Shown here: piece by piece, positions 44,553 through 62,296 of the stretch
Layout of the letters: every line of letters begins with the position of its first letter
Position numbering within the stretch: position 1 is the stretch's first letter
From: an uncultured Gammaproteobacteria bacterium
GTDB taxonomy: Bacteria > Patescibacteriota > Microgenomatia > Levybacterales > UBA12049
DNA: 64,000 nt
Direction of reading: 5' to 3'
Assembly: GCA_964474445.1 (NCBI GenBank)
Contig: CAYYSJ010000002.1
Span: 119,570-183,569, forward strand
Notes under the pieces: generated by a model
Told to the model about the DNA's origin: nothing
The model's input: the letters and a program-made list of their open reading frames with translations, nothing else
Databases searched by the model: none
Program-made: the position numbers and the translations under genes

Positions 44553-44569
44553 TACTAGTAACTAAATTC

Positions 44570-45695: not shown

Positions 45696-45707
45696 TATTT
45701 AAATTTC

Positions 45708-46448
45708 TTGACTTTCTTACACATACATAAACGATATTTGAAATATATGGATACAGACAAAAAAGTATTACATGCGATAGCAATTGATGGTCCAGTAGCG
45801 GCTGGAAAAGGGACGATTGCTACAGCACTCAGTAAACGATTAAAGGGATTTCATTTGAATACGGGTGCGATGTATCGATGCCTTGCTCTCTACTGCCTCG
45901 AACAAAATATCCCTGTACAAAAGGTAGATCAGGTTATTGCAGGACTTTCTCGTATTTGGTTTGATTTAGAACCTGACAAAGTCTTTTTAAATGGTGTTGA
46001 TGTAACTGAAAAGATAAAGCAACGTGCAGTGACACAGCTTGTTGCAAAAGTAGCGGCTATTGGACAAGTCAGAGAGGAAATGGTGAAGCGTCAACAAGAA
46101 ATCGGACGTAAAAAGATTGCTCAGGGGATGATTGTCATTGCAGAGGGACGGGACGCGGCAACAAAAATTTTTCCTGATGCATTATTAAAGATTTTTCTCA
46201 CTGCCCGTCCTGAAATACGAGCACAGAGGCGTTTTGAGCAGATGGGAGGCAAAAACAATCATACCATTACATACGAACAAATTTTATCTGATACGAACGA
46301 GCGGGATAGACGAGATTATGAGCGGAAAGTTGATCCATTAGTAAAAAATCCAAAAGAAATGGGATATGTTGTATTAGATAATTCAGACCTGAGTGAAGAA
46401 GAGACAGTGCAGGCAGTTGCTGATGCATGGGAGAAGATAAACAAATGA
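45708..46448 (+). CDS. cmk: Cytidylate kinase
   Basis: IAIDGPVAAGKGT P-loop and the CMP-kinase core. The true start may be MDTDKK at 45747. Confidence 0.85.
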   Translation: MTFLHIHKRYLKYMDTDKKVLHAIAIDGPVAAGKGTIATALSKRLKGFHLNTGAMYRCLALYCLEQNIPVQKVDQVIAGLSRIWFDLEPDKVFLNGVDVTEKIKQRAVTQLVAKVAAIGQVREEMVKRQQEIGRKKIAQGMIVIAEGRDAATKIFPDALLKIFLTARPEIRAQRRFEQMGGKNNHTITYEQILSDTNERDRRDYERKVDPLVKNPKEMGYVVLDNSDLSEEETVQAVADAWEKINK

Positions 46449-47224
46449 GAATACCTATTAAAACACCACAAGAGATAGAAATAATGGTACGGGGAGGAAA
46501 AATCCTTTCAGAGACAATGTGGGAGGTCCTTAAACATGCAAAACCAGGAGTTAGCGAGCTAGAGCTTGACGCTCTTGCAGAGAAACTTATCCGTAAGCAG
46601 GGTGGAGAGCCTGGATTTAAAAAGGTGGAAGGATACAAGCATACCATTTGTATTTCAACAAACCAGGTAGTTGTGCATGGTATCCCCACTCCTTACAGGT
46701 TACAAGAGGGAGATATTGTGGGGATTGATTGTGGGGTCTTTTTAGATGGCTTTCACACAGACATGTCAGAGTCTATTCAAGTGAAACGAGAAGGATCAAC
46801 AGTTAACAGTGAAGAGAGTAGAAAGATTGATCAATTTTTGGCGACCGGGAAAAAAGCACTTGAGGAGGCTATTCAACAGGTAAAACCTGGTAATAGGATT
46901 GGTCATATCTCCCAAACGATTCAGAAAATCGTTGAAGGTGGTGGATATAGTGTGGTTCGTGAGCTTATTGGCCACGGTGTAGGAAAGGAATTGCATGAAG
47001 ATCCCCCTGTACCTGGATATTTCTCAGGGAAACTTGAAAAAACTCCCCTGCTTCGTGAAGGAATGGTGATTGCTGTTGAAATTATCTATAACATGGGGAA
47101 AAAAGCTGTCGTTTTTTCTGGAACAGATGACTGGACAATTGAGACAAAAGATGGGTCGTTATCAGGCCTTTTTGAGCGTACTATTGCAATAACAGCAGGA
47201 GGACATAAGATTTTAACCCCCTAG
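46445..47224 (+). CDS. map: Methionine aminopeptidase type I
   Basis: Pita-bread fold motifs (GHGVGKELHEDP, D..D metal ligands). ATGA start/stop overlap with cmk. Confidence 0.9.
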   Translation: MRIPIKTPQEIEIMVRGGKILSETMWEVLKHAKPGVSELELDALAEKLIRKQGGEPGFKKVEGYKHTICISTNQVVVHGIPTPYRLQEGDIVGIDCGVFLDGFHTDMSESIQVKREGSTVNSEESRKIDQFLATGKKALEEAIQQVKPGNRIGHISQTIQKIVEGGGYSVVRELIGHGVGKELHEDPPVPGYFSGKLEKTPLLREGMVIAVEIIYNMGKKAVVFSGTDDWTIETKDGSLSGLFERTIAITAGGHKILTP

Positions 47225-47304
47225 GTGTTCACAAGTTCAGAAAATGCTAAATTCTGGTATACTGACTCTATCTAGTTTTCTGAGTATTCTGACCTTCTGA
47301 GTTA

Positions 47305-47333
47305 TTGCTCTTTGAGGCAAGGTTTGATATAAT
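47305..47333 (+). promoter_or_regulatory. Promoter for the infA-rpmJ-rpsM-rpsK-rpsD-rpoA cluster (TTGCTC, 17 nt, extended TGATATAAT)
   Basis: Hexamers at 47305-47310 and 47328-47333. Confidence 0.45.
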
Positions 47334-47352
47334 AAGTCTCTAGTTGAGATAA

Positions 47353-47571
47353 ATGGCACATCAAGGATCTTACGAAGTGGAAGGGATTGTAAAAGAGTCT
47401 CTTCCTAATACGTTATTTAGAGTCGAGTTATTCGACGGATCAGTTGTTTTGTGTCATTTAGCTGGCAAAATGCGAATTAATTTTGTCAAAATTTTACCAG
47501 GAGATAAAGTCAGAGTAGAAATGACTGAATATGACAAAACCAAGGGTAGAATTATTTCGAGAGGGAGATAG
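47353..47571 (+). CDS. infA: Translation initiation factor IF-1
   Basis: A 72-aa S1-like OB fold, highly conserved. Confidence 0.95.
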
Positions 47572-47576
47572 AAACT

Positions 47577-47690
47577 ATGAAAGTACAAGCAAGCGTCAAA
47601 CCAAGATGTGCAAAATGCAAAGTTATTAAGCGAAAAGGAGTGCTTCGTGTTGTTTGCGAAAATCCACGACACAAGCAGCGCCAAGGATAA
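47577..47690 (+). CDS. rpmJ: 50S ribosomal protein L36 (37 aa; not in the ORF track)
   Basis: Translation [37 protein letters not shown] with the C-C-C-H zinc ribbon, in the conserved infA-rpmJ-rpsM position. Confidence 0.9.
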
Positions 47691-47693
47691 TCT

Positions 47694-48101
47694 ATGAGAA
47701 TTTCAGGAATTACAATACCAGACGAAAAAAGAGTTGATATCTCTTTGACTTATTTATATGGTGTTGGCAGAAGTAATGCAAAGGATGTTTTGAAAAAAGC
47801 AGGAGTAGATAGTGCAAAAAGAGTAAAAGATTTATCGGAAGATGATCAAAAGAACATTGCAAAGATTCTTGAATCCTACAAGCTTGAGGGAGATTTACGA
47901 GCAGAAGTTACTGGAAATATAAAAAGACTTCGAGAAGTTGGTACATACCGAGGAAGTAGACATACACATAACTTACCTTCAAGAGGACAAAGAACAAGAT
48001 CAAATGCTCGTACGAAGAGAGGAAAGAGATTAACCATTGGAGCTATTAAGAAAGAAGTTGCAGCAAAGATGGAAGCATCAAAAGCAAAAACAACAAAGTA
48101 A
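47694..48101 (+). CDS. rpsM: 30S ribosomal protein S13
   Basis: MRISGITIPDEKRV. Confidence 0.95.
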   Translation: MRISGITIPDEKRVDISLTYLYGVGRSNAKDVLKKAGVDSAKRVKDLSEDDQKNIAKILESYKLEGDLRAEVTGNIKRLREVGTYRGSRHTHNLPSRGQRTRSNARTKRGKRLTIGAIKKEVAAKMEASKAKTTK

Positions 48102-48104
48102 CCT

Positions 48105-48524
48105 ATGGCAAAGAATGTAAAATCAAATGAAAAAAAGTCTGGAGCATCTACTGGACGCAAGAAAAGCGGAGTAGCAGTTAGTACATCAGGCAAAATTTTT
48201 ATTTCTGCTACCTTTAATAACACATTGGTAACTGTTACCAATGATAAAGGAGAAACAGTTTCTTGGAGTTCATCTGGAGCAAAAGGTTTCAAGGGTGCAA
48301 GAAAGTCTACTCCTTATGCTGCGTCATTAGCAGTAGAAGATGCAGCGAAAAAGGCACTTGAAAAAGGACTAAAATCAGTTGAGGTATTTGTGAAGGGTCC
48401 AGGTTCCGGACGAGATAGCGCTCTCCGGGCAATCCGTTCTGCAGGGCTTTCAATTGCTCTGATTGCAGATATTACCCCTATCCCACATAATGGACCTCGA
48501 GCAAAAAAGAAAAGGAGAGTCTAA
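48105..48524 (+). CDS. rpsK: 30S ribosomal protein S11
   Basis: Conserved S11. Confidence 0.95.
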
Positions 48525-48533
48525 CGAAATAGT

Positions 48534-49136
48534 ATGGCACGATATACAGGACCAAAACATAAATTAGCACGACGAGAAGGCATTAACCTGATTGATAAGC
48601 AATCAGCAACCCTTCAAAAAAGATTAACTGTTAAACCAGGAGTGCATGGTGGTAAAAGAGCGAGAAAACTTTCAGAATTTGGACTTCAGCTGCGAGAAAA
48701 ACAAAAAGCAAAAAATATGTACGGTGTTTTAGAAAAACAATTTGCCAATATGGTGCATAATGTTCAAAAAATCAAAGGCGATACTTCAGAGGCAATTATT
48801 GCTCGACTTGAAAGAAGACTTGATAATATCGTCTATCGATTAGGATTTACAAAATCACGATTTATGGCACGCCAATTTGTCTCACACGGGCATGTGTTGG
48901 TAAATGGTAAAAAGTTAACAATTCCTTCTTACCTCGTAGAGTCAGGAGATATTATTGAACTTGGGAAAAAAATTCAAGAAAATCCAGATGTTGTTAAAGT
49001 AATGGCAGATGATAAAGTCCTTTTACCATTTTTGGAAAGAAAAGGACATGTAGGTAAATTAGTACGAGATCCAAAAAGACAAGACGTTGAAGTACCATTT
49101 GACGTCCAAATGATTATCGAATACTACTCACGATAA
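48534..49136 (+). CDS. rpsD: 30S ribosomal protein S4
   Basis: MARYTGPKHKLARREG. Confidence 0.95.
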   Translation: MARYTGPKHKLARREGINLIDKQSATLQKRLTVKPGVHGGKRARKLSEFGLQLREKQKAKNMYGVLEKQFANMVHNVQKIKGDTSEAIIARLERRLDNIVYRLGFTKSRFMARQFVSHGHVLVNGKKLTIPSYLVESGDIIELGKKIQENPDVVKVMADDKVLLPFLERKGHVGKLVRDPKRQDVEVPFDVQMIIEYYSR

Positions 49137-49216
49137 GCATAATAGAATGCTTGTGAAGCAAGCAAATTTGCGTGTTGAATATTATTCGAAGAAATGGTAA
49201 AATACCTATTACTATT

Positions 49217-50140
49217 ATGATGATTGCAAATTTTAAAGTAACAGAACAAAACAGCTCAGAAACATTTGCACAATTTGTTATTGAGCCACTCGAACCAGGA
49301 TATGGTTATACATTAGGCCATGCAATGAGACGAGTCTTACTTGCATCTATTCCAGGAGCAGCAGTCACCTCAGTAAAAATTTCTGGAGTAAAGCATAAAT
49401 TTGCAGCAGTTCCAGGTCTTAAGGAAACAGTCGTTGATTTCCTTCTTAATCTTAAAAATGTTAATTTTAGACTTTCTTCCTCAAAAGAATCAGCAACAGT
49501 AACACTTTCTGTAAAAGGTCAAAAAGAAATTACCGCAGCAGATATTGAGGCTGTTGATGGTGTTGAAGTTGTTAATCCAGATCAATACCTTGGTTCTCTT
49601 TCAGGTGATAAAGCAAAGCTTGAAATGGAGATTACTCTCGAAAGAGGATATGGATACTCTCTCGCTGAAGAACGACAAGTTGAATCACTTGGAACAATTC
49701 TTGCTGATGCAGTATTTACTCCAGTAAAAAGAGTAAACTACACTGTTGAAGCAACCCGTGTTGGACGACGAACTAATATGGATAAATTAGTTCTTCAAGT
49801 ATGGACAAATGGCTCTGTTACTCCAAAAGAAGCTCTTGATGAAACAGCAAAAATCCTTTCATCGTTCTTTAAGCAGGTTTATGAACCACAAACAGAAGGT
49901 GTAGAAGCACCAGTTGTGGCCACATCTTCTGTCTCTGAAGATTTACTCAGACTTACTGTTGATGAATTAGACCTTCCTACAAGAATTTACAATAGTCTTC
50001 GAAATGGCGGTATAGAGACAATTGGTCAACTATTGTCTACACCACGAAAAGATCTTATTTCCATGCGAAATATGGGAGCAAAATCAATTGCAATTATTGA
50101 AGAAAAGCTGTCAGATAAGGGTATTTCACTCAATGTATAA
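49217..50140 (+). CDS. rpoA: DNA-directed RNA polymerase subunit alpha
   Basis: FVIEPLEPGYGYTLGHAMRRVLL N-terminal domain and the C-terminal domain. The ORF-track GTG start at 49172 is probably too long. ATG at 49217 is preferred. Confidence 0.9.
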   Translation: MMIANFKVTEQNSSETFAQFVIEPLEPGYGYTLGHAMRRVLLASIPGAAVTSVKISGVKHKFAAVPGLKETVVDFLLNLKNVNFRLSSSKESATVTLSVKGQKEITAADIEAVDGVEVVNPDQYLGSLSGDKAKLEMEITLERGYGYSLAEERQVESLGTILADAVFTPVKRVNYTVEATRVGRRTNMDKLVLQVWTNGSVTPKEALDETAKILSSFFKQVYEPQTEGVEAPVVATSSVSEDLLRLTVDELDLPTRIYNSLRNGGIETIGQLLSTPRKDLISMRNMGAKSIAIIEEKLSDKGISLNV

Positions 50141-50237
50141 TTGTTGAGTCGTAAGACCGCCCAGTTTAGAAGCGACCAGCTCGCATAGGTAGAATCAGGT
50201 TGCGGGTGGGCGCTTATTTTTTTAGGGAAACAATAGT

Positions 50238-50759
50238 ATGAGAAAACAAGTATTTGGAAGAAAATTTAAAAGAGACGCAAATGAAAGAAAAGCTCTTCTG
50301 AAAGGGCTTATGAATGATTTGGTTTTAAAAGAAGGTATTAAAACAACTGAAGAGAAGGCTAAATCTATTAAAGGACAGGTTGAAAAATTAGTTACAAAAG
50401 CAAAGAATAAAGGTGAAGCATCACGAAGCCTTTTACAACCGTATTTAAATGCAAAAGCAGTTGAAAAAGTCTTAAAAGATTTGGCTCCTCGATTTGCAAA
50501 AAGACAGGGTGGTTATACAAGAATTGTTAAATTAACTGAAAGATTTGGAGATAATGCATCAATGGCAATTATTGAATGGGTTGAAAAAGCAACTGTTGTT
50601 GAAGTAGCAGAACCAGAAAAAGCAGAAAAGAGTAACAAGAAGGAAGCTCTTGAAGCAACAGTCAAAGAAGAAAAGCCAACAAAGAAAGAAACAAAAAAGG
50701 GAGAGAAGAAGGAAACGAAAAAAGAAGAAAAGAAAGCTGGAAAAACAACAAAAAAATAA
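50238..50759 (+). CDS. rplQ: 50S ribosomal protein L17 with K/E-rich C-terminal extension
   Basis: Conserved L17 core, then EKKETKKEEKKAGKTTKK. Confidence 0.9.
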   Translation: MRKQVFGRKFKRDANERKALLKGLMNDLVLKEGIKTTEEKAKSIKGQVEKLVTKAKNKGEASRSLLQPYLNAKAVEKVLKDLAPRFAKRQGGYTRIVKLTERFGDNASMAIIEWVEKATVVEVAEPEKAEKSNKKEALEATVKEEKPTKKETKKGEKKETKKEEKKAGKTTKK

Positions 50760-50762
50760 ACT

Positions 50763-51185
50763 ATGAATAAAGCAACCAAACCAACATCACAAAAAGATAT
50801 CATCAGAAATTGGCATTTAGTTGATCTAAATGATAAAGTATTAGGTCGAGAGGCAACAGCAATTGCTCACAAATTGATGGGAAAAGGCAAGCCATACTTT
50901 GTGACTAACTTAGATTGTGGTGACTATGTTGTTGTCATTAATGCAAAGAGTGTGAAAGTTACTGGGAAAAAGGCAACAGACAAGACATATTACCGGCATT
51001 CTATGTATCCCGGTGGATTTAAATCAGAAACCTTTAAAGAAGTTATGATGAAACATCCAACCGAGGTTATTGTTCATGCAGTAAAAGGGATGTTGCCACA
51101 AAACAAATTACGAGATAAAATGCTTAAGAGACTTTTTGTCTTTGAAGGTGCAGAGCATAAGTACCAAGACAAATTTGCAAAATAA
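50763..51185 (+). CDS. rplM: 50S ribosomal protein L13
   Basis: Conserved L13. Confidence 0.9.
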   Translation: MNKATKPTSQKDIIRNWHLVDLNDKVLGREATAIAHKLMGKGKPYFVTNLDCGDYVVVINAKSVKVTGKKATDKTYYRHSMYPGGFKSETFKEVMMKHPTEVIVHAVKGMLPQNKLRDKMLKRLFVFEGAEHKYQDKFAK

Positions 51186-51194
51186 GGAGATTAT

Positions 51195-51647
51195 ATGGCT
51201 AATAAAACAACAAAAAGAGATTACATATACGCAGTAGGACGACGACGAGAAGCATCAGCTCGAGTTAGACTCTATGCTGCTGTGAAAGATGGTCAAGCCT
51301 GGGGTGAACAGACAGTAAGTAAAGATCAGATGCTTGTTAATGGGTTACCAGTTGAGCATTACTTTTCAGGTCCTGTTGCAAAATCAAGGTATCAACTACC
51401 ACTTGTTCTCACAAATACTCTTGGAAAATATGCTGTTACTGTTAAAGTAGAAGGCGGCGGGAAGACAGGACAGTTAGGAGCACTCGTTTTGGGTCTTGCA
51501 CGAGCACTTTCTCTTGCTGATAAGGAAAAGAATAGACCTGTACTTAAGGCAAAAGGACTTCTCAAAGTTGATGCGAGAGTTAGAGAGCGACGAAAAGTTG
51601 GTACTGGCGGCAAGGCTCGACGAAAGAAACAATCTCCAAAGCGTTAA
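51195..51647 (+). CDS. rpsI: 30S ribosomal protein S9
   Basis: GGGKTGQLGALVLGLARAL and the R/K C-terminus. Confidence 0.95.
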   Translation: MANKTTKRDYIYAVGRRREASARVRLYAAVKDGQAWGEQTVSKDQMLVNGLPVEHYFSGPVAKSRYQLPLVLTNTLGKYAVTVKVEGGGKTGQLGALVLGLARALSLADKEKNRPVLKAKGLLKVDARVRERRKVGTGGKARRKKQSPKR

Positions 51648-51697
51648 TATTTTCCCTCTCAATCCAAACAGAGCGAAAAACGTTATTTTCCAAATTT

Positions 51698-52018
51698 TTA
51701 GAATTTCAGGAGTTCCATGTAAAGGAGAATTTTTAGCAGGCCATTTGTAGGCCAAAGATTATATGTTGCGTGGGGAGGAATAGGAATGAGGTCTCCCGGT
51801 TCTACGTCAAATTTTTCTCCATTAATAACAAACTCTCCCTCTCCATCCAAAATATAATATATTCTTTCCCTATCTTCAATTGTTCTTTCTCCATGTTCGC
51901 CAGTAAATTCTGCATAAGCGACAGTTGTTCCATGATTACTGTCTGGTAATTGGTAATACCATCCATTAACACCCTCTCTGCCATGGTAAATAGTATCTTT
52001 CTTTGAAATCTTTTTCAT
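51698..52018 (-). CDS. Cupin-domain protein
   Basis: Cupin two-motif pattern (G..E.H.H...E.YYILDGEG ... PG..I.IPP..H). Confidence 0.6.
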   Translation of the reverse strand: MKKISKKDTIYHGREGVNGWYYQLPDSNHGTTVAYAEFTGEHGERTIEDRERIYYILDGEGEFVINGEKFDVEPGDLIPIPPHATYNLWPTNGLLKILLYMELLKF

Positions 52019-52473
52019 GATTGTATATGAAGTTCTTGTCTTGGGTTAATAGGAAAGTTCAATGAATCAAATAGAACAAAAAGAGTAGGTTTTATCATGT
52101 AAACATTATGTTCGTCTTTTCCATCAGCAATTTTTTGCCTACGTTCTTCTTTCATGTTCATTCGTTTGGCATAGAGCTCTAGTGCGTGATGAAATTCTTC
52201 TCCAGTAGTTAGCTCCTTTGCGACCCCATCAAATTGTATACCTCTAACAGCATCTCCTGGAGTATGCGGTAAAACAATAGTTCCAGCTACTTTTTGATTC
52301 GCTTTCAATTCTTGAGAGTGTCTTGTTGAAGGCAAAGAGATCCAAAATAGATTAAATTCATCATCAAAAGCAAAATAGACACTACATGCCCATGGCTGAT
52401 TATCTTTTGAAGTTGCCACCTGCATAAGCCGTGCATCATTCAAATACTCTTTAATAAGTTGTCGAATCTCCAT
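52015..52473 (-). CDS. Pyridoxamine 5'-phosphate oxidase-like FMN-binding split-barrel protein
   Basis: PNPOx-like N-terminus (ARLMQVATSKDNQPWACSVYFAFD). It overlaps the downstream cupin gene by 4 nt. Confidence 0.6.
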   Translation of the reverse strand: MEIRQLIKEYLNDARLMQVATSKDNQPWACSVYFAFDDEFNLFWISLPSTRHSQELKANQKVAGTIVLPHTPGDAVRGIQFDGVAKELTTGEEFHHALELYAKRMNMKEERRQKIADGKDEHNVYMIKPTLFVLFDSLNFPINPRQELHIQS

Positions 52474-52507
52474 GCCAAAATTATATCAGAGAGTGGCGAG
52501 TTTTCAA

Positions 52508-53530
52508 TCACTTCCACAATTGCAAAAACGCTTTTTCGTGCTTTTTGACAACGTTTTTATTTCCTAAAAGGCCGTGTTGGGACATATCCGGAGAATATTT
52601 ACTTGCAGGGACAACTCGTCCTAAAGATTCTGCCATTGAACGGACATGATGAGGGCCAGCACCACAACAGATGCCAATGTAGTTAATACCAATTTCCTTT
52701 GCCGCTTTTGTAAACTCTGCCATTTCTGTCCGGGTACAAAGGAATGGATCTAAATGAACGGGAAAGGCGGAATTTCCGTCTTTTTGTTTGAGGAATTGGA
52801 ATGCAGGATACTTAGCAGTCGTATGATACGGTACAGGTTGTGCTGCAGTAAAACATGAGACGGATTTTCGAAGTTTCTGAAGAAGTGGTAATAGTGTCTT
52901 TGGTCCCCTGATACAGTTGAATCCTACAACATCAACACCTTTCTCCTCAAGCATTTTACATCCTTCTATCCAATCAATCCCATCCTTACTTTTCTGATAC
53001 GTCGCTCCAAATGTGACAAGCGCTGGATATCCATACTGCTTAATAACATCCAAAGCGATCAGTGCTTCTCCAACGTATTCAATTGTTTCTGCAATAATGA
53101 AATCAACTCCTGCCTCTTTTGCCCATCCAACTTGCTCTTCATACATATTCCGCACAATTGTTTCTGATTTCTTATCTCCCGGTTTATAAGCCCACGTATT
53201 ACAAATATTTCCAGCAACAAGTGCATGCCCTTCTTTTGCAACTTTTTTTGCAATTTTTAAAGCTTGTCTATTCATTGGCTTTAGGTCGTTCTCTCGTCCG
53301 ATTACTCGCAGTTTTTCTCTATGTGCATAATAAGTAAACGCGACCATCACTTCTGCACCTGCTCTTAAAAACTCTCTATGCAATTCCTCAACAGCTTGAG
53401 GATAATCCAAAACGACCTCAGGTACAAAAGCACCTGCTTTTAGAAAGCCTCTTCTTTCAAGTTCAAAAAGATATCCTTCTGCCCCAAGGACTATCCCTTG
53501 CTGTAATCTCTCTAAAAGTGATTGTTTCAT
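52508..53530 (-). CDS. Betaine-homocysteine S-methyltransferase-family (BHMT/HMT, Pfam S-methyl_trans) zinc-dependent homocysteine methyltransferase
   Basis: Collinear with animal BHMT over the whole length (GAEGYLFELERRGF.KAG.F.PE...HREFLRAGAEV; IGICCGAGPHHVRSMAESL zinc-Cys motif). Confidence 0.8.
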   Translation of the reverse strand: MKQSLLERLQQGIVLGAEGYLFELERRGFLKAGAFVPEVVLDYPQAVEELHREFLRAGAEVMVAFTYYAHREKLRVIGRENDLKPMNRQALKIAKKVAKEGHALVAGNICNTWAYKPGDKKSETIVRNMYEEQVGWAKEAGVDFIIAETIEYVGEALIALDVIKQYGYPALVTFGATYQKSKDGIDWIEGCKMLEEKGVDVVGFNCIRGPKTLLPLLQKLRKSVSCFTAAQPVPYHTTAKYPAFQFLKQKDGNSAFPVHLDPFLCTRTEMAEFTKAAKEIGINYIGICCGAGPHHVRSMAESLGRVVPASKYSPDMSQHGLLGNKNVVKKHEKAFLQLWK

Positions 53531-53534
53531 AAAA

Positions 53535-53560
53535 CTAAAAAACCCCGCTGAGCGGGGAGG
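53535..53560 (-). terminator. Minus-strand intrinsic terminator (CCCCGC-TCA-GCGGGG + TTTTTT) ending 4 nt before the BHMT-family ATG; the terminator arm of an attenuator
   Basis: Reverse complement of plus 53537-53557. Confidence 0.6.
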
Positions 53561-53580
53561 TTCGTATTTCTCAAATAAGA

Positions 53581-53643
53581 CTACAACGAACTTCCCCTCA
53601 AAGAGGACATCATCATAGTCATCATAATTTGTTCATGTATCAT
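53581..53643 (-). CDS. Candidate 20-codon Met-rich leader peptide MIHEQIMMTMMMSSLRGSSL
   Basis: Minus-strand ORF ATG ATA CAT GAA CAA ATT ATG ATG ACT ATG ATG ATG TCC TCT TTG AGG GGA AGT TCG TTG TAG. Six of 20 codons are Met. Its 3' end forms the antiterminator arm. Confidence 0.5.
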   Translation of the reverse strand: MIHEQIMMTMMMSSLRGSSL

Positions 53644-53653
53644 AATTAAATAA

Positions 53654-53682
53654 AGTATATATCTCGAAAAAATTGTTGTCAA
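53654..53682 (-). promoter_or_regulatory. Minus-strand sigma70-like promoter (TTGACA, 17 nt, TATACT) driving the leader-peptide and BHMT-family transcript
   Basis: The -35 is the rc of plus 53677-53682 and the -10 is the rc of plus 53654-53659. The leader ORF ATG begins about 10 nt downstream. Confidence 0.5.
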
Positions 53683-53789
53683 TCATATCCAATGTGGAGG
53701 ATAGCAATTATAGTAAAAACTCTCTGTTACTCCCTACGTTTAATTTTCTCTATTGCTAAGATTATAAGGTATGTTATAATAGTCAAGTT

Positions 53790-54554
53790 ATGCCGAAGAA
53801 AAAAAGAACTCCTAAAAAAACTGATCAAGCAAAATCAGTAAAATCATTAAAACCAGTAAAAGCAGCACGAAAAACAGCCCCAAGAAAAAATGGTGTAAAA
53901 GCTCAAAAGACACAAACAGCTGAACAACAAATGGCTCCTGAAACACATACAACTTCTCAAGCAGTTAGTACAAATGCACGAAATCCAAGACTTTGGATAG
54001 GACTTGGTATTGTTGTTTTGGTTATTTTAGTAGTTGCTTTTAAAGGTTTATTCATTGCAGCAATCGTCAATGGCCAGCCAATTAGTCGATTACAAGTTTT
54101 GCAACAACTTGAGAAGCAAAACGGTAAGCAAGCATTAAGTAGTCTTGTTACCCAAACCCTTATTACTCAAGAAGCAGCAAAAAAACATGTGAGTGTCAGT
54201 CAGGCAGACGTAAATAGTGATTTAAAGAAAATCGATGATGCATTGAAAGCACAAGGACAAAATCTGGATACAGCACTTGCTGTGCGAGGATTGAGCAAAC
54301 AAGATTTGGTCCAGCAAATAACTCTCCAGAAATTAGTTGAGAAAATGGTAGGAAAAGATGTCAAAGTAACAGATGCAGATGTTCAAAAATATATTGATAA
54401 TAATCAAGATACGTTGCCAAAAGACTTGTCTGATGATCAATTACGAGCACAAGTGAAACAACAACTTGAACAACAACAATTGCAGGATAAAACACAAGCG
54501 TTTGTCGCAAATTTGCAGAAGAAAGCAAACATTTCCTACTTCGTTAGCTATTAA
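53790..54554 (+). CDS. Membrane-anchored protein with K-rich N-terminal tail and SurA-N-terminal-like chaperone domain
   Basis: Basic tail, one TM (LWIGLGIVVLVILVVAF), then a Q/L-rich helical domain resembling the SurA N-domain. Confidence 0.4.
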   Translation: MPKKKRTPKKTDQAKSVKSLKPVKAARKTAPRKNGVKAQKTQTAEQQMAPETHTTSQAVSTNARNPRLWIGLGIVVLVILVVAFKGLFIAAIVNGQPISRLQVLQQLEKQNGKQALSSLVTQTLITQEAAKKHVSVSQADVNSDLKKIDDALKAQGQNLDTALAVRGLSKQDLVQQITLQKLVEKMVGKDVKVTDADVQKYIDNNQDTLPKDLSDDQLRAQVKQQLEQQQLQDKTQAFVANLQKKANISYFVSY

Positions 54555-54583
54555 AGTTAGTACCTAATAATTTTGAGTTTTTT

Positions 54584-55213
54584 CTACACCTCAACAATAT
54601 CACCTGTTTCTACCGTTTTAAAATCAATTCCTTGTGTTGCAAAATACTCTTTGAATCGTTGATAGAATGCTTTTCGTGCTTCATCTCTCCAATGCCAATC
54701 ATGTATTGGAATAATAACTTTTGGTTTAAGCTGCAGTGCAAGTTCAACCGCTCGTGTGGTATTACCCCATGGTGCCTGAATGGGAAGTGCTAGAGTATCT
54801 ACAGTTATCGTAAAGGTATGTGAATCACCTGGTGTTGCAAATGTTCCAAATAGTGTTGCCAACACATTTTGTGGCGCAGCGCCAAACCAAATTTTCTCAT
54901 GGGGAACAGGTTTTAAAGAGATAAACTCATTGCCTTCTGTGTAGACATTGTGAATACCTTCTGATATCAGGATGTTCTTTGCTGACTCAGTAGTATAGAG
55001 AGGGGTATGCGGAAATTTTTGCAGAATTTCTTTTATCCAGGGAAGATACATATGGTCTGGATGTTCATGAGTAATGACAATTGCATCAAGTTGGTTCAGT
55101 GAATTTATATCTAACGCATTTTCGTTGTATGAATAATTTCCTGGATCTATTAACACAACTTTTCCTTGGTCCTCGACTAAAAGACAGGAATGGACATGTT
55201 TGGAGATCTTCAT
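54584..55213 (-). CDS. MBL-fold metallo-hydrolase
   Basis: HEHPDH (HxHxDH) motif and a downstream His. Confidence 0.75.
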   Translation of the reverse strand: MKISKHVHSCLLVEDQGKVVLIDPGNYSYNENALDINSLNQLDAIVITHEHPDHMYLPWIKEILQKFPHTPLYTTESAKNILISEGIHNVYTEGNEFISLKPVPHEKIWFGAAPQNVLATLFGTFATPGDSHTFTITVDTLALPIQAPWGNTTRAVELALQLKPKVIIPIHDWHWRDEARKAFYQRFKEYFATQGIDFKTVETGDIVEV

Positions 55214-55577
55214 ATGCAGAGTATATCAAAGGAAATCTGAGAAAACTATCTGAAGAAAATCACAATATAAATAAGCGAGCGTCAATGGATCATCTTTAAC
55301 AATCTTAGAAAATAAGTTCTAGGATGACTATATATAGGTAGAATATTTTTCTACAAGTAAGCAATTATGAATATAATTAGAAACTTTCATAAATTTATTT
55401 TATTTCTTATTTTTACTTTGGCCAAGGCAAATAAGAGAACAGTAGGATTTTTGATTTAACTTTTTATTTTCATTTACATGTCGGAGATCTCGTAGAATTT
55501 TTTTATTACAATAAGAGCAAATTAAAGTAACAAACACAGTCATGTTTTTATTACAAATTATACGAATAGCAATTGTG

Positions 55578-55649
55578 TCGGGGCGACATGAATTGAACAT
55601 GCTACTTCTCGGACCCCATCCGAGCGTTCTACCGATGAACTACGCCCCG
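55578..55649 (-). tRNA. tRNA-Pro (anticodon GGG), 72 nt, no encoded CCA
   Basis: The minus strand reads CGGGGCG-TA-GTTC-ATCGGTA-GAAC-G-CTCGG-ATGGGGT-CCGAG-AAGTA-GCATG-TTCAATT-CATGT-CGCCCCG-A. It has a 7-bp acceptor stem, a 4-bp D stem with GG in the loop, a 5-bp anticodon stem, U33-GGG-G37, and a TTCAAxT T-loop. Confidence 0.7.
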
Positions 55650-55767
55650 GTTGTGTTGTGATTTTACCTTAAATGGTGAAGAAAGAAAAGATCAAGATAG
55701 TATTATAAGTCTTACCAAAAACTTACGTATTTGAGCTAGAATGATCTATTGTATTCCAATGCAGAAT

Positions 55768-55776
55768 TGCTATTAT
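55768..55776 (+). promoter_or_regulatory. Extended -10 variant TTGCTATTAT 11 nt upstream of the recA ATG
   Basis: GAATTGCTATTATAGGTATATATT then ATG at 55788. Confidence 0.35.
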
Positions 55777-55787
55777 AGGTATATATT

Positions 55788-56891
55788 ATGGCACGAACAG
55801 CTACAGCCCCTAAAACAGTAACAGCCGCTCCTGATGCAGATCAACAACATAAAATGGACGCAGTCCGTATGGCAATGGAAGCAATTGAAAAGCAATATGG
55901 ACGTGGATCTATTATGCGTTTTGGAGAAGCTGCACAAAAGCTTGATATTTCTGTTATCTCCACAGGGTGTCTTCCTTTAGATATAGGACTTGGTGTTGGT
56001 GGGTTACCAAGAGGAAGAATTATTGAAATCTACGGACCAGAAGCATCTGGAAAAACAACAATTTGTCTCTCAACCATTGCACAAGCACAAAAGCATGGTG
56101 GTGTTGCTGCATTTATTGATGCAGAGCATGCACTTGATCCACTGTGGGCACAACAAGTTGGGATTAAATTAGATGAGCTGTTGATTTCTCAACCAGACAC
56201 AGGAGAGCAGGCTTTAGAAATTGCAGAGTCATTAGTTCGCTCAGGAGGAATAGACGTTCTGGTTATTGATTCTGTTGCAGCACTTGTTCCAAGAGCAGAA
56301 ATTGAAGGAGAAATGGGTGATGCGATGGTTGGTCTTCAGGCACGACTTATGTCCCAAGCTCTTAGAAAATTAACAGCAGTTATTTCTAAATCCAAGACTG
56401 TTGTTATCTTTACCAATCAGTTACGACAAAAAATTGGTGTGATGTTTGGTAATCCAGAGACGACAACTGGTGGACTTGCTCTTAAATTCTATGCTTCTGT
56501 TCGAATGGATGTGCGAAAAATTGAGACTATCAAAGATGGAGATAAAGTTGTTGGCTCACGACATCGAGTAAAAATTGTCAAAAATAAGGTTAGTGTTCCA
56601 TTTAGAACGGCAGAATTTGAAGTGTCTGAAGATGGCATCTCTAGAGAAGGTGGTATTTTGGATGTTGGTATCGAACTTGGCATTATTTCCAAATCTGGTG
56701 CATTTCTTCGCTATGGAGAGACAATGCTTGGACAAGGACGTGCTGCAGCAATGGATACATTGAAAGGCAATAAAGATTTGGAAGCAGAAATTGTTAAGAA
56801 AATTAAAGAACAATCCCAGACTCGCACACCAATGGAGCTTGGAAAAGAAGATAGTGACGAAGAAGAAGTAGATCGAACCCTAGAAGTATAA
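55788..56891 (+). CDS. recA: Recombinase RecA
   Basis: GPEASGKTT Walker A, L1/L2 loops and the acidic C-terminus. Confidence 0.95.
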
Positions 56892-57005
56892 TCCTCTGTA
56901 TGGCAAAACGAGTGGAAGAGCCTTTTTATCCCCACCAGCTTAAACCCTTTGGTAACACGGTTATAGGAGAAGGTTGGACATGAGGATATAAAAAGTAAGT
57001 AGCTT

Positions 57006-57485
57006 ATGGATTTTAATACTCTCTATACAAAAGCTTTAAAATATCTCAATTATCGCCCTCGCTCAGAAAAGGAAATTCGAGATTATTTGGCAAAAGAACT
57101 TGGAAGCCCTTCCAGTGCAGATCTATCTCTGATTGATCTAATAGTGCTCAAGTTAAAGTCACAAAGATTCCTTAATGACTTGGAATTTGCGCGTATGTGG
57201 GTGAGGAGTAGGACGTCATATAAACCAAAGGGAGAAAGGCTAATCCGTTTGGAATTAGAGCAAAAGGGAATTAGTAAAGAGATTCTAGATGAAGTACTCC
57301 AAAACTCAGAAGTCAGAGTAAGTAATGACCTAGAGCTTGCTATTGAAATGCTTGAGAAAAAACGTGAGAAGTATGAAGGAATGAGTAGGCAAGAAAGATT
57401 TAATAAAGCGGGTTCAATGCTTGCCAGGCGAGGCTACGATTTGAATACAATTCGTAAGGCAATTGACCAAGTTTTTGAAAAATAG
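57006..57485 (+). CDS. recX: Regulatory protein RecX
   Basis: Three-helix repeat RecX-like sequence immediately downstream of recA. Confidence 0.75.
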   Translation: MDFNTLYTKALKYLNYRPRSEKEIRDYLAKELGSPSSADLSLIDLIVLKLKSQRFLNDLEFARMWVRSRTSYKPKGERLIRLELEQKGISKEILDEVLQNSEVRVSNDLELAIEMLEKKREKYEGMSRQERFNKAGSMLARRGYDLNTIRKAIDQVFEK

Positions 57486-57601
57486 TATAATAGAGGTAGA
57501 CGCAAAAGGAATTAGTTTATGAAGAGCCGTCTTTTATTATTCGTTCTTCAGATAGCTTTTAAATAAGCAATTTCTCCTTTTGTTTTAGTTATTAAATATT
57601 T

Positions 57602-58837
57602 ATGGCAAACGATGTATTAGATTTAGAGAAAAAACTCCTTGAAAAACAAGAAAAATTAGACGAACTCAAAGAGAGATTAGAAAAAGAAAAAGAAGAATAC
57701 CGTGAAAAGCTTCAACAGCTTGCTCATCTGACAGCAGATGAAGCAAGAAAAGCCCTCATGGAAGAGACAGAGAGGTCCGAGGCAGCATCTGTTGCGAAAC
57801 TTATTAAAGAGCGTGAAGAAGAGGCAAAAAGAACAGCAGATAGAAAAGCCCAAGAAGTCATCGTCGAGGCAATGAGACATGGCACCATTAATTATGTTGC
57901 TGAATTTACTGTCTCAATTGTGAAGGTTGAAGATGAAGAAATGAAGGGTCGAATTATTGGAAAAGAGGGCCGAAATATCAGGGCTTTTGAATCTGCAACT
58001 GGCGTTGATATTGATTTAGATGAGGAGGGTGTCATTAGACTTTCTTCATTTGATAGTATAAGACGGGAAATTGCTCGACGAGCACTTGAAGTTCTTTTGA
58101 AAGACACAAGAATCCAGCCTTTCAGAATTGAAGAAGTTGTTAATCAAACCAAACAAGATCTGGAAAAGATTATGTTTCAGGAAGGAGAAAAACTTGCTCA
58201 TGAAGCAGGGGTTTTTAGTTTACCAGTGGATCTTATTAAGATGCTCGGTCGCTTTAAATTCAGAACTTCTTATGGACAAAACCTCATTACCCATTCTTTA
58301 GAAGTAAGTAAAATTGCTGTTGGGATTGCTGAAGAAATTGGTGCAGATGTTGATGTTGTCAGACTTGGTGGATTGCTGCATGATATTGGAAAAGTTGTTG
58401 AGGGTGAAGGAAGTCACGTTAAATTAGGAGTTGAGCTTCTTAAGAGATATGGGCTTCCAGAAACCATTGTTAATACTGTTGCTGAGCATCATGAGGACAA
58501 ACCTTTCTCTTCTGTTGAATCAGTTATAGTGCATATTGCTGACCAAGCATCAGGTGGACGACCCGGTGCAAGATATGAGGATGTTGAAAAATATGCAAAT
58601 AGACTGAAGGAAATGGAAGAAATGGCAAAGAAATACGAGGGAGTTGAAGATGCATATGCTTTCGAAGCAGGACGAGAATTGCGAGTGATTATTAATCCTG
58701 GTAAATTAGATGATGCACAGACTGTTATTATTGCAAAGAAATTGCGAGACGAAATTAGTAATTCCTTAGCGATTCCAGGAGAAGTAAAAGTAACTGCAAT
58801 TCGAGAATTCCGTGCTGTTTCAGGGGAAAGTCTATAA
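57602..58837 (+). CDS. rny: Ribonuclease Y (coiled-coil, KH and HD domains; no N-terminal TM encoded in this ORF)
   Basis: Collinear with B. subtilis RNase Y from the coiled-coil onward (GRIIGKEGRNIR, LKFRTSYGQN, LLHDIGK, VAEHH). Confidence 0.85.
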   Translation: MANDVLDLEKKLLEKQEKLDELKERLEKEKEEYREKLQQLAHLTADEARKALMEETERSEAASVAKLIKEREEEAKRTADRKAQEVIVEAMRHGTINYVAEFTVSIVKVEDEEMKGRIIGKEGRNIRAFESATGVDIDLDEEGVIRLSSFDSIRREIARRALEVLLKDTRIQPFRIEEVVNQTKQDLEKIMFQEGEKLAHEAGVFSLPVDLIKMLGRFKFRTSYGQNLITHSLEVSKIAVGIAEEIGADVDVVRLGGLLHDIGKVVEGEGSHVKLGVELLKRYGLPETIVNTVAEHHEDKPFSSVESVIVHIADQASGGRPGARYEDVEKYANRLKEMEEMAKKYEGVEDAYAFEAGRELRVIINPGKLDDAQTVIIAKKLRDEISNSLAIPGEVKVTAIREFRAVSGESL

Positions 58838-59325
58838 TTTACTCAATAACTTCTCTTCCAATTGCATAAATGCCATACCGATTGATTCTCTTTTCATAAT
58901 TACCTAAAGAATGGTAACTTTTTATTCTCTCCTCAATATTGTCGTCGCGTGAATATCCCTTCAGTTTCAAGCATGATTCTGATATCTGGGTAATGATGAA
59001 CAAAATGTACCATTGTTTCTATTTGTTCATGAGTTTTTTCATTTTCAAAGAGAATAGTATTGCCCTTTTTCATTTGTTTATAATCGTATATCTTGAAAAT
59101 CTTTTGGTGTTCTCCCTTCAATTTTTTAAATACCCTTTTTAATTGCGTGAAAAGGACGGGTTTTTAAAGATAAATAGTATTTCTATTGATAAACAATTCT
59201 ACACAATGATTTTCATAATTATAACATTAACAGATATATTGATATAGTTGGCCACATTGACAATATTCTCGTTTGAGTTGTATTGTTAATCTAATCTACA
59301 ACTGCCCTGATAGGAGGTGAAATAC

Positions 59326-59598
59326 ATGACAAAAAGAGATTTAATCGAACTCGTTGCAAAAAAAGCAAATCTTACCAACAAGGCAGCACGAGATAGTGTT
59401 CAAGCAATGCTTAATGCTGTCCGAGATTCTCTCAAAAGAGGAGAAAAAGTTGTTTTGACTGGATTTGGAACTTTCTCAGTGAGAAAGAGAGCAAGTAGAC
59501 CAGGTCGAAATCCAAAGACTGGTGCAAAGCTTACTATCGCTGCACGAAAAGCTCCTGGATTTACACCAGGTAAGACATTAAAGAAAGCAGTTCGCTAA
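59326..59598 (+). CDS. hup: HU-family DNA-binding protein
   Basis: MTKRDLIELVAKKANLTNKAARDSVQAMLNAV...GFGTFSVRKRASRPGRNPKTG. AGGAGG precedes the ATG at 59326. Confidence 0.85.
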   Translation: MTKRDLIELVAKKANLTNKAARDSVQAMLNAVRDSLKRGEKVVLTGFGTFSVRKRASRPGRNPKTGAKLTIAARKAPGFTPGKTLKKAVR

Positions 59599-59620
59599 GG
59601 TTATCTGCTTTCACATACTA

Positions 59621-59662
59621 AAGAGGTTTTTTACAATTTATTTGTGAGAAACCTCTTTTTTT
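59621..59662 (+). terminator. Intrinsic terminator after hup (AAGAGGTTT / AAACCTCTT stem with long loop + T-run)
   Basis: Inverted repeat followed by TTTTTTT. Confidence 0.55.
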
Positions 59663-59684
59663 GATACCATAACAGTTACTAGAT

Positions 59685-60668
59685 ATGAGTACAATTTCTG
59701 TTAAAAATTTAGTCAAAGAATATACAGTATATAAAAAAGAACCAGGATTTGTAGGTTCTTTAAAATCATTATTTTCTCGAAAATATGAAAAGGTGAGGGC
59801 AGTTGATGATATCTCCTTTGAAATAGAAGAAGGAGAATTAATCGGTTTTATTGGTCCAAATGGAGCAGGGAAAACAACAACGCTTAAGTGTTTGTCTGGT
59901 CTTTTATATCCAACGCATGGAGAGGTAAAAGTACTTGGATTTACCCCATTTGAGCGGAAAACAAAATTCTTAAAAAGTATTGCATTGGTAATGGGACAAA
60001 AAAATCAATTGTGGTGGGACTTGCCTGCCATGGAGAGTTTTTCACTAAATAAGGAAATTTACGAAATTCCAGACAAACAATTTCAAGAAGTAGTACATGA
60101 TTTATCAAAACTATTAGATGTAGAAGAATTCCTTAAAGTCCAAGTTCGCAAACTGTCATTAGGACAGAGAATGAAAATGGAATTAATTGCTGCGTTGTTG
60201 CATAATCCAAAAGTATTATTCTTGGATGAACCAACTATCGGTCTTGATGTTGTCATGCAACAGAATCTGCGTGAGTTTATTCGTGAATATAACAGAAAAT
60301 ATAAAGCAACAATATTGCTAACTTCTCACTATATGGGAGACGTAGAGGCATTGGCAAAAAGAGTGATAGTTATTAATCATGGGAAAATCTTATTTGATGG
60401 ACAACTCTCAGATTTGGTAAAAAAGCATGCTCCATATAAAGTGATTTCCGTGGTGCTCAATAATATGCCAAATCCGAAAATCCTCGAAGGAATGGGTGAA
60501 ATAGAGAAATTTAAATACCCGGAGTTAATTTTAAGAGTTCCAAGAGACAGGGCAAGTGAAATTGCAGGAATTATTCTTTCCAAACTTCCTGTTGAAGATG
60601 TAAATATTGAAAATCCGTCAGTGGAGGATATTATTCGAGATGTTTTTTCAGGAAGTCAGGCAAAATGA
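59685..60668 (+). CDS. ABC transporter ATP-binding protein (COG4586-like, with ~100 aa C-terminal extension)
   Basis: Walker A GPNGAGKTTT, the LSLGQRMKMEL signature, Walker B LFLDEPT and the H-loop. Confidence 0.85.
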   Translation: MSTISVKNLVKEYTVYKKEPGFVGSLKSLFSRKYEKVRAVDDISFEIEEGELIGFIGPNGAGKTTTLKCLSGLLYPTHGEVKVLGFTPFERKTKFLKSIALVMGQKNQLWWDLPAMESFSLNKEIYEIPDKQFQEVVHDLSKLLDVEEFLKVQVRKLSLGQRMKMELIAALLHNPKVLFLDEPTIGLDVVMQQNLREFIREYNRKYKATILLTSHYMGDVEALAKRVIVINHGKILFDGQLSDLVKKHAPYKVISVVLNNMPNPKILEGMGEIEKFKYPELILRVPRDRASEIAGIILSKLPVEDVNIENPSVEDIIRDVFSGSQAK

Positions 60669-60671
60669 CCT

Positions 60672-61451
60672 ATGCGCTATGCGAGAATACTTTTTCTTAA
60701 TTTTCAACAAGTTTTTGAAGAAAGAACACGCTCTTTTATTTGGTTTCTGCTATCTCTTTATGGACCTCTGTTAATGGTGCTTTTTTGGAGAGGAGCAAAG
60801 ACGAGTATCTCGTTCTCTTCAATTTCATCATATTATTTTCTTCTTGTTATTGGAGGATCTTTTCTTATGTCTCATTCAGAAGAGAATATCGCTCTTATTG
60901 ATATTCAAGAAGGTCGCTTAGGTAACTATATCCTTAAACCTTTTATATATTTCTTTGCTAAATGGATGGAAGAAATACCATATAGATTGTTGCAAGGATC
61001 TTTTGGAGTTATCACATTAATATTATTTTTATTCTTTTTTCATGTTCATATTCCTTCGTTTTCCTTTAAACCCTTGAATATCATCATGATGATACTACTC
61101 ACATTGGGTGCAGTAGTTCTTACGCAGATTTATAAAACCTGTTTGGGATTTATTGCATTTTGGATGACTGATGCGTATGGAATTTTTCAACTATCAGAAA
61201 TGCTCATATTTATTTTTGGAGGATACATTGTTCCTCTTTTCTTGTTTCCTCATACTATTGAAATTATTGCATACATAATCCCTTTTCCTTATATGCTCTA
61301 TTTCCCAGTAGCTGCCTTTGCTGGAGTATTTAGTCAATTGCAATTGCTTCTTATTCTTTTGGGGCAATTACTTTGGATTTGTTTTTTTATTGGTATATAT
61401 CTATTGCTGTGGAGAAAGGGTCTTAGAATTTTTGCTGGAGTAGGACAATAG
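60672..61451 (+). CDS. ABC-2-type permease paralog 1 (6 TM; GNYILKP motif)
   Basis: Hydrophobic 6-TM protein. It shares the G-x-Y-L-L-x-P motif with the three following paralogs. Confidence 0.7.
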   Translation: MRYARILFLNFQQVFEERTRSFIWFLLSLYGPLLMVLFWRGAKTSISFSSISSYYFLLVIGGSFLMSHSEENIALIDIQEGRLGNYILKPFIYFFAKWMEEIPYRLLQGSFGVITLILFLFFFHVHIPSFSFKPLNIIMMILLTLGAVVLTQIYKTCLGFIAFWMTDAYGIFQLSEMLIFIFGGYIVPLFLFPHTIEIIAYIIPFPYMLYFPVAAFAGVFSQLQLLLILLGQLLWICFFIGIYLLLWRKGLRIFAGVGQ

Positions 61452-61458
61452 AAAATCT

Positions 61459-62247: not shown

Positions 62248-62296
62248 CAGTATATGTTAACCTGAGTTTGTTTGCTGGCAAATCGAAATCTACTAT

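Follow-up and report, generated by a model that had tools for sequence, protein, structure and literature searches.

In Campylobacter jejuni, a short RNA ahead of metBA encodes MetL, a leader peptide of 20 amino acids (aa) with three methionine (Met) codons, for which ribosome stalling and antitermination were proposed (PMC3847290). Its translation is supported by a peak in translation initiation site (TIS) ribosome profiling (Ribo-seq), and a second Met-enriched short open reading frame (ORF), CJsORF19 (MMYQMR), lies upstream of a Met transporter (PMC11955535). In Streptomyces lividans, a leaderless ORF of 29 aa upstream of metNIQ was annotated as a Met-dependent leader peptide, metL, and its authors noted that a typical Rho-independent terminator is missing (PMC8079986). 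Leaderless leader peptides for various amino acids have been described in Deinococcus deserti (PMC4007540), and mycobacterial leaderless polycysteine short ORFs (sORFs) sense Cys and unmask a downstream ribosome-binding site (bioRxiv 10.1101/834739). A literature search for Met-rich or Met-sensing leader attenuators returned nothing relevant beyond the MetL proposals in C. jejuni and S. lividans. Here we describe a candidate Met-codon attenuator from an uncultured member of the Patescibacteria (candidate phyla radiation, CPR), located on 64,000 nucleotides (nt) of contig CAYYSJ010000002.1 (hereafter the window; G+C content, 37.6%), where it precedes a gene for a BHMT-family homocysteine S-methyltransferase. 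Gene regulation in the Patescibacteria is almost unexplored because these organisms are uncultured.

Judging from the sequence, this leader is likely to be a ribosome-mediated transcription attenuator that senses charged elongator Met-tRNA. Such an attenuator was first put forward in an earlier interpretation based on the letters of the window (the sequence-only reading), and it now finds computational support in the recurrence of the layout at other loci, compensatory changes in its helices, the S-adenosylmethionine (SAM)-I riboswitches that stand before orthologues, and folds in which a ribosome masks part of the RNA. The sequence-only reading placed a Met attenuator outside the classically described cases, and there it belongs; the idea itself, however, is not new, and the claim of novelty was overstated because MetL leader peptides had already been proposed (PMC3847290, PMC11955535, PMC8079986).

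Architecture of the leader and its recurrence

All parts of the leader lie in the 259-nt gap between a plus-strand gene (53790-54554) and the minus-strand BHMT-family gene (53530-52508); coordinates are window positions throughout, and the leader is read on the minus strand. The sigma-70-type promoter (53654-53682) consists of TTGACA (53682-53677), a 17-nt spacer and TATACT (53659-53654), a match at 11/12 positions and the top-ranked promoter in 44001-64000. The leader ORF (53643 to 53581) has 20 codons and a TAG stop (ATG ATA CAT GAA CAA ATT ATG ATG ACT ATG ATG ATG TCC TCT TTG AGG GGA AGT TCG TTG TAG) and encodes MIHEQIMMTMMMSSLRGSSL. Six of its 20 codons are Met, five of them within six consecutive codons, and the putative regulatory run comprises codons 7-12 (AUG AUG ACU AUG AUG AUG; 53608-53625). 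Downstream lies an intrinsic terminator (53537-53557), CCCCGC-UCA-GCGGGG (53557-53543) with six GC pairs followed by U6 (53542-53537), after which AGTTTT leads to the BHMT-family ATG at 53530. Counted from the ATG of the ORF through the last U of the tract, the leader is 107 nt long. The promoter, the Met-rich ORF and the terminator had all been claimed by the sequence-only reading and are present as it described them. A separately assembled Logan contig (L172, run SRR12266076) has exactly the same sequence across the gene and the 500 nt before it. The terminator is the top match of its kind in 44001-64000; the sole other strong terminator-like site in 44-64 kb, at 59620-59658 on the plus strand, is a 17-pair A/U-rich hairpin followed by TTTTT.

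Within this RNA, segment 2 (53579-53599) can pair in either of two directions. Its antiterminator 5′ arm (GAGGGGAAGUUCG, 53599-53587) faces segment 3 (CGAACCUCCCC, 53554-53564), the antiterminator 3′ arm, whose CCCC is shared with the terminator 5′ arm. The pairing of GAGGGGAAGTTCG (53599-53587) with CGAACCTCCCC (53564-53554) involves 10/11 positions, gives a hairpin of -18.4 kcal/mol and takes up 4/6 nt of the terminator 5′ arm; as a duplex, segments 2:3 reach -18.5 kcal/mol compared with a shuffle mean of -7.8 (p=0.003). The 10/11 pairing had been noted by the sequence-only reading, which wrongly placed GAGGGGAAGTTCG in the last 13 nt of the ORF, as TTG TAG come after it. That reading also overlooked the other direction, in which segment 1 (53620-53610, within the Met-codon run) forms a 1:2 hairpin of -17.4 kcal/mol. 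Here the Met run GACUAUGAUGA pairs with UCGUUGUAGUC (53589-53579, stop codon included) and encloses a small CCUCU/AGGGG hairpin, with the terminator following in the minimum-energy fold. The terminator stem (3:4) amounts to -10.3 kcal/mol. For the whole leader, the terminator state reaches -30.8 kcal/mol and the best antiterminator-containing fold -28.8 kcal/mol; by these models, the leader would be a finely balanced switch. It also folds better than shuffled sequences (z = -2.8).

At least five ATG per seven in-frame codons occur once in the window, counting both strands, and that is at the leader; no such run arose in 200 first-order Markov simulations (0/200). The only 4-of-7 ATG runs in the window, at 17714 on the plus strand (in another frame of the 711-aa ORF 15973-18108) and at 38551 on the minus strand (antisense to the 222-aa ORF 37948-38616), were set aside as chance.

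A scan of 172 loci holding relatives of the BHMT-family protein revealed this layout 10 more times, on nine Patescibacteria contigs (L001, L161, L163, L164, L165, L169, L170, L008, and two copies in L002; L162 is the L161 sequence from a second assembly), and the Met run and alternative helices for which the sequence-only reading suggested a check in related genomes recur there. Nine of the 10 stand upstream of BHMT orthologues, the other (L002a) preceding a DUF2000 gene in the same operon. Their in-frame Met runs read MMAMMM, MTAMMM, MMTMMM, MMQMM, MMMAMM, MMPMPM, MNMM, MTM and MMTPM. The predicted peptides are, in order of protein identity, MNKLSAKMMAMMMTPLRGNSL in L161 (86%), MVLSNKTMTAMMMSPFREVLS in L163 (84%), MTSTRKMMTMMMTPFGEVS in L164 (83%), MMYRKFTIMTMSSLGGSLS in L169 (82%), (V)SIRKQMMAMMMTSLREALS in L001 (78%), MRIASTTFVMNMMAS in L170 (77%), MTHEPIAREAMMQMMPQPSPRGLLSA in L165 (76%), MTNNTRNMMMAMMPHREAEF in L002a and MQTKHHNAQTVMMPMPMSRPRPLS in L002b (72% for the L002 BHMT-family protein), and, in L008 (65%), MMTPMLCPRLVPIS or, if translation begins at a possible TTG start in the same frame with GAGGA before it, a peptide of 20 aa. 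The sequence from start codon to Met run is poorly conserved, and its length varies by whole codons, from 6 to 10. The terminators differ as well (CCCCGC/GCGGGG, CCTCCC/GGGAGG, CCTCT/GGAGG, CCTCCG/CGGAGG, CCGGCC/GGCCGG, AGAGCCTCG/CGGGGCTCT), while a GC-rich stem followed by a tract of 5-8 T is found in 11/11 instances, the tract being interrupted in L002b (TTTATTT). Among the metagenome-contig matches listed, which were Chloroflexota- and Actinomycetota-like, there were no new Met leaders, only the SAM riboswitch cases L083 and L084.

The helices are conserved despite these differences in sequence. In all 11 instances, base pairing joins the segment behind the Met run to the terminator 5′ arm and the adjoining upstream bases; the duplexes range from -7.8 to -20.7 kcal/mol, always lower than the shuffle mean of the same locus (per-locus p 0.001-0.09; Fisher’s combined p = 3.5e-13 over 11 instances that are not independent). 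The first nt of the duplex lies 8-14 nt after the last Met codon (8-9 nt in 9/11, mostly 9), and the stop codon is offset from the arm end by -9 to +9 nt. From the RNA between the end of the Met run and the terminator 5′ arm in six close relatives, RNAalifold predicts the antiterminator de novo, with double changes in 6/14 pairs. Truncated segments were used because a MAFFT alignment of whole leaders, which was set aside, put segment 3 out of register between CCCCGC-type and CCTCCC-type terminators. A 12-pair antiterminator helix has 87.5% of its cells paired, compared with 42-57% after a shift of the partner by 1-3 columns; compensatory changes are seen in four of its pairs, and its covariation score was reached by 0/500 shuffles. 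The 1:2 hairpin is likewise kept in the six close relatives, where it hardly covaries because AUG codons cannot vary.

This recurrence bears on whether the leader is regulatory at all. It could instead be a constitutive promoter with a leaky hairpin, a Met-rich micropeptide (e.g., a Cu(I)-binding Mets motif), or a site where another transcript terminates. MxM motifs do bind Cu(I) in other proteins, and a minus-strand gene (54584-55213) lies about 1 kb upstream, contrary to the sequence-only reading, which had stated that none existed further right. However, the plus-strand gene 53790-54554 separates the leader from that minus-strand gene, and the terminator was rejected as the 3′ end of a convergent or plus-strand gene because the hairpin has no T-tract on the plus strand and the adjacent gene is divergent. 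Chance would also have to account for a Met run absent from every simulation and for the whole layout at 10 other loci with different sequences, and a functional micropeptide for a C-terminus that varies except where pairing constrains it. Since the layout recurs with co-varying helices, chance or a micropeptide is excluded for practical purposes, and we regard a non-regulatory leader as extremely improbable.

Predicted switching by the ribosome

In the attenuator model, transcription would start about 7 nt after TATACT, with the leader AUG at or within a few nt of the 5′ end, and a ribosome would initiate there without a Shine-Dalgarno (SD) sequence. When Met-tRNA is plentiful, the ribosome would pass the six Met codons, reach the UAG and cover segment 2 (GGGGAAGUUCG...). 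Segment 3 could then pair with segment 4 as the CCCCGC/GCGGGG terminator, so that RNA polymerase would stop at the U-tract, before the gene ATG at 53530. When Met-tRNA is scarce, the ribosome would stall with a Met codon (codons 7-12) in the A site and melt the 1:2 hairpin. A ribosome stalled in this way would leave segment 2 exposed, because that segment begins 9-10 nt past the last Met codon; segment 2 would pair with segment 3 (-18 kcal/mol) and sequester the terminator’s CCCC. Polymerase would read into the BHMT-family gene, and the enzyme would make methionine from homocysteine. The parts of the leader, their conservation and covariation, the folding energies and the regulatory context of the orthologues come directly from sequence and computation; the transcription start and the stalling of the ribosome we infer from the arrangement of these parts.

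The stalling and termination switch expected by the sequence-only reading is reproduced, as a prediction, when the leader is folded with pairing barred for all nt that a ribosome would cover, taken as everything from the 5′ end up to 9-13 nt beyond the position where the A-site codon begins. In the window, a ribosome on codons 1-4 leaves the terminator in the minimum-energy fold, the antiterminator replaces it with the A site on codons 5/6-12, which span the Met run, and the terminator is back from codon 13/14 to the stop. The same succession from terminator to antiterminator to terminator is predicted for L001, L163, L164 and L002a, the antiterminator taking over roughly two codons ahead of the Met run (earlier in L002a) and persisting to the end of the run. 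In L170, only the change from antiterminator to terminator appears, and L161, L165, L169, L002b and L008 agree only partly.

Inspection of the leader sequence found no SD sequence for the leader ORF, a feature that the sequence-only reading had overlooked. The -10 box and the start codon are separated by 10 nt in the window and by 6-12 nt in 9/11 instances, with promoters that match at 9-11/12 positions; in these promoter-adjacent instances the start codon is ATG, except for GTG in L001. A promoter that ends 6-12 nt before the start codon would put the beginning of transcription at or within a few bases of that codon, and the ORF is therefore probably leaderless or nearly so. By eye, ribosomal-protein genes in the window have GGAG(G) motifs 5-13 nt upstream of their starts, so that the missing SD is a real feature of the leader and not a genome-wide property. 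An anti-SD energy scan of the window’s ORFs did not separate starts from controls, as the choice of start codon in these ORFs is unreliable.

Initiation at the BHMT-family gene itself raises the question of whether the output is translational, instead of or besides transcriptional, with the 3:4 hairpin hiding the gene’s sole SD-like sequence and a Met stall freeing it via 2:3. At four loci, namely the window, L163, L164 and L169, the only purine-rich motif 9-14 nt before the ATG is the 3′ arm of the terminator (GCGGGG at 53543-53548 in the window, GGGAGG or AGGAGG in the relatives), which means that the hairpin could also mask a ribosome-binding site. Ribosomal-protein genes of the window do carry SD motifs, and the mycobacterial leaderless polycysteine sORFs offer a precedent for unmasking (bioRxiv 10.1101/834739). 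However, GGGG, as found in the window, makes a poor SD, hairpin and ATG are 18-60 nt apart in L161, L001, L165, L002a and L008, two of which (L165 and L002a) have their own AAGGAG downstream of the terminator, and the stem with its T-tract, present in every instance, is the signature of intrinsic termination. Masking of the ribosome-binding site is a possible add-on to termination, and we consider translational control unlikely to be the main output.

Several considerations weigh against transcription attenuation by a translating ribosome. The model requires translation of the ORF and termination at the U-tract, both of which we infer from sequence features, and intrinsic terminators as predicted here are not enriched in 44-64 kb (16 found, 11.8 expected). 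It would further depend on leaderless or near-leaderless initiation in a genome whose ribosomal-protein genes have GGAG(G), and we know of no demonstration of leaderless initiation in Patescibacteria. Met starvation should deplete initiator fMet-tRNA as well, which could block translation of the leader. In ribosome-free RNA ending before the terminator 3′ arm, equilibrium folding slightly prefers 2:3 over 1:2, and the untranslated default would therefore rest on folding kinetics, with 1:2 forming first. Masking yields a clean switch for no more than about half of the instances, covariation was assessed on a small sample (six related sequences), and AUG has no synonymous codons, so that coding and RNA constraints are inseparable at the Met run.

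The putatively regulated gene and its orthologues

The gene downstream of the leader (52508-53530, minus strand) encodes a protein of 340 aa that matches PF02574 (E 1.7e-41) and has rat and human BHMT1 as its best PDB matches (E 4e-55), in agreement with the BHMT-family identity given by the sequence-only reading. The protein falls below every NCBIfam equivalog cut-off and should therefore be named no more narrowly than BHMT-family homocysteine S-methyltransferase. The closest homologues, at 65-86% identity, belong to metagenome-assembled genomes (MAGs) labelled Patescibacteria, Saccharimonadales, Saccharibacteria and Levyibacteriota.

Orthologues without the Met ORF have a SAM-I riboswitch with a terminator at the same position. 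The gathering score of Rfam is reached in L004, L010, L021, L022, L066, L083 and L084 (45-53 bits), L006 (43.9 bits), L171 (40.2 bits) and L167 (37.4 bits) are just below it, and L166 resembles the SAM-I loci by eye. The presence of SAM-I at the same place in orthologues marks the gene as a Met/SAM feedback target, with the polarity that the attenuator model needs. In P0015, P0016 and P0017, the gene is found inside operons headed by SAM riboswitches or a plain promoter. SAM-I scores around the gathering threshold (37-53 bits) in several orthologues suggest that this Patescibacteria group has a somewhat divergent variant of the S-box.

In a rough neighbor-joining tree, the Met-leader loci are spread over at least two clades that sit among the riboswitch loci, and on one contig the two kinds of leader occur in tandem. 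In L170 (792-1121), a Met leader with its own terminator (CCTCC-GAAA-GGAGG followed by T7) is succeeded by a promoter-like TTGACA-17-TATAGT and a SAM-I riboswitch (963-1064), which scores 46.2 bits, not below the gathering score, and has a terminator of its own; the BHMT-family gene begins at 1121. This tandem may be a two-input gate or an evolutionary intermediate. On balance, though with real reservation, we favor the view that leaderless Met-run attenuators repeatedly replaced SAM-I before the same BHMT-family gene in Patescibacteria, the two coexisting in tandem in one contig. In L002 (1746-4660), from a Saccharimonadales contig, the order is leader, DUF2000 gene (1887-2300, PF09391), leader, BHMT-family gene, and a Cys/Met-metabolism pyridoxal phosphate (PLP) enzyme (3527-4660), an operon order that links DUF2000 to methionine metabolism.

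The leader of the window matched no Rfam family, the only hits at E ≤ 10 being chance-level ones to snoR126, mir-515 and Trp_leader, the last at 16.2 bits compared with a gathering score of 41 (E 2.2), with no other leader family listed. A SAM-I riboswitch (RF00162) in the window leader was rejected, as there was no SAM-clan match in 53300-54000 at E ≤ 10, and so was a T-box (RF00230), as there was no T-box match at E ≤ 10 and the leader is only 107 nt long.

These searches also bear on the idea of an untranslated RNA switch, either a new Met or SAM aptamer or the target of a protein that binds AUG repeats, as TRAP recognizes triplet repeats, the ORF being incidental. The leader folds better than shuffles, its AUG repeats are one strand of a conserved hairpin, and the lack of a synonymous codon for AUG makes RNA and coding constraint indistinguishable at that point. 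However, what the divergent instances L165, L002a, L002b, L008 and L170 have in common is only in-frame AUGs, an open frame anchored at the promoter, the alternative helices and a stop codon that lies within segment 2 or close to it; they share no conserved core resembling an aptamer, and there is no match in Rfam. Changes of whole codons between start and Met run do not fit an untranslated RNA. A factor bound to segment 1 at high Met would, moreover, free segment 2 and cause read-through, the wrong polarity when compared with the SAM-I orthologues. Overall, we find an untranslated switch very unlikely, and attenuation by a translating ribosome remains the preferred reading.

L161 and L164 share the synteny of the window, with a divergent SurA_N-like gene, the BHMT-family gene and then rpsI-rplM-rplQ-rpoA, but in both the PNPOx-like gene is found beyond the SurA_N-like gene; L163 has an MFS transporter whose gene ends at the promoter of the leader. 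By these comparisons of gene order, the leader travels with the BHMT-family gene rather than with its neighbors. Downstream in the window, a promoter-like site on the minus strand (52480-52507; TTGAAA, 16 nt, TATAAT, with an upstream TG; 11/12 match) occupies the 34-nt gap between the BHMT-family stop and a PNPOx/YhbP-like gene (52473-52015), and the PNPOx-like and cupin genes may therefore be transcribed apart from the attenuated gene. BHMT-family proteins with 65-68% identity occur in MAGs labelled Methanosarcinales, Methanobacteriota and Micrarchaeota (among L005, L007, L009 and L011-L016) and with about 60% identity in Chloroflexota and Actinomycetota; this spread suggests wide lateral gene transfer, or some mis-binning.

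Relation to known attenuators

The main relevance of these findings is to CPR biology and to the evolution of riboswitch and leader-peptide control. If the model holds, this would be the first case in which the sensing of Met-tRNA is tied to a full set of covarying 1:2, 2:3 and 3:4 helices, and it would point indirectly to leaderless initiation and to the coupling of transcription with translation in CPR bacteria, since a conserved leader-peptide attenuator implies that reduced genomes couple the two processes and probably initiate without a leader. It would also exemplify regulatory turnover, the same gene being controlled by a SAM riboswitch in some lineages and by a Met-codon sensor of tRNA charging in others, with the tandem form as an intermediate or a two-input gate. 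The BHMT-family, DUF2000 and Cys/Met PLP genes are flagged as parts of a Met regulon in these bacteria. Met is rarely reported as an attenuator specificity, possibly because initiation itself needs Met-tRNA, and a well-defined family of Met leaders makes the question of this rarity testable.

SAM-I riboswitches (S-box, RF00162) hold the same position before orthologues, also act through a terminator and presumably serve the same Met/SAM feedback, whereas their aptamer senses SAM directly and requires no translation. With the mycobacterial and D. deserti leaders, the Met leader shares a putative sensory ORF, predicted at or near the 5′ end of the transcript, whose codon runs would sense amino acid supply by ribosome pausing; it differs from the mycobacterial sORFs in its conserved canonical terminator and in the predicted sensing of Met rather than Cys. 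Similarly, the attenuators of the enterobacterial trp, his, leu, thr, phe and ilv operons (Trp_leader RF00513 and others) have the same kind of short ORF, in which codons for the product of the pathway follow one another, and the same four segments, with a 1:2 hairpin, a 2:3 antiterminator, a 3:4 terminator and a stop codon placed so that the ribosome can cover segment 2, and their three-state logic is reproduced here by modelling. Unlike them, the present leader would be specific for Met, lacks an SD, has a start codon that abuts the promoter, belongs to Patescibacteria and shows no homology to them by sequence or covariance model.

The relation to the two MetL leaders is one of analogy only. 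Like C. jejuni MetL, the present leader places a small Met-codon ORF, on a short RNA that would end at a terminator, before methionine biosynthesis genes (PMC3847290); MetL differs in initiating from a ribosome-binding site and in its fewer Met codons, unrelated phylum and target gene, and the analysis of alternative helices and covariation reported here has no counterpart in the text available for MetL (PMC3847290). Like S. lividans metL, it is a short, in this case probably leaderless, ORF with Met codons before a methionine-related operon (PMC8079986), whereas metL has only two internal Met codons mixed with Cys codons (CMCRRMC), its peptide (MSTTSDRTPATEATTTPGARCMCRRMCAF) has no obvious similarity to the leader peptide of the window, and the present leader has a clear terminator and antiterminator. 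What is new here is a sequence-unrelated family in a different phylum, whose Met run is much stronger and whose four-segment architecture is complete and shows covariation, together with a predicted leaderless placement and both interchange and tandem arrangement with the SAM-I riboswitch.

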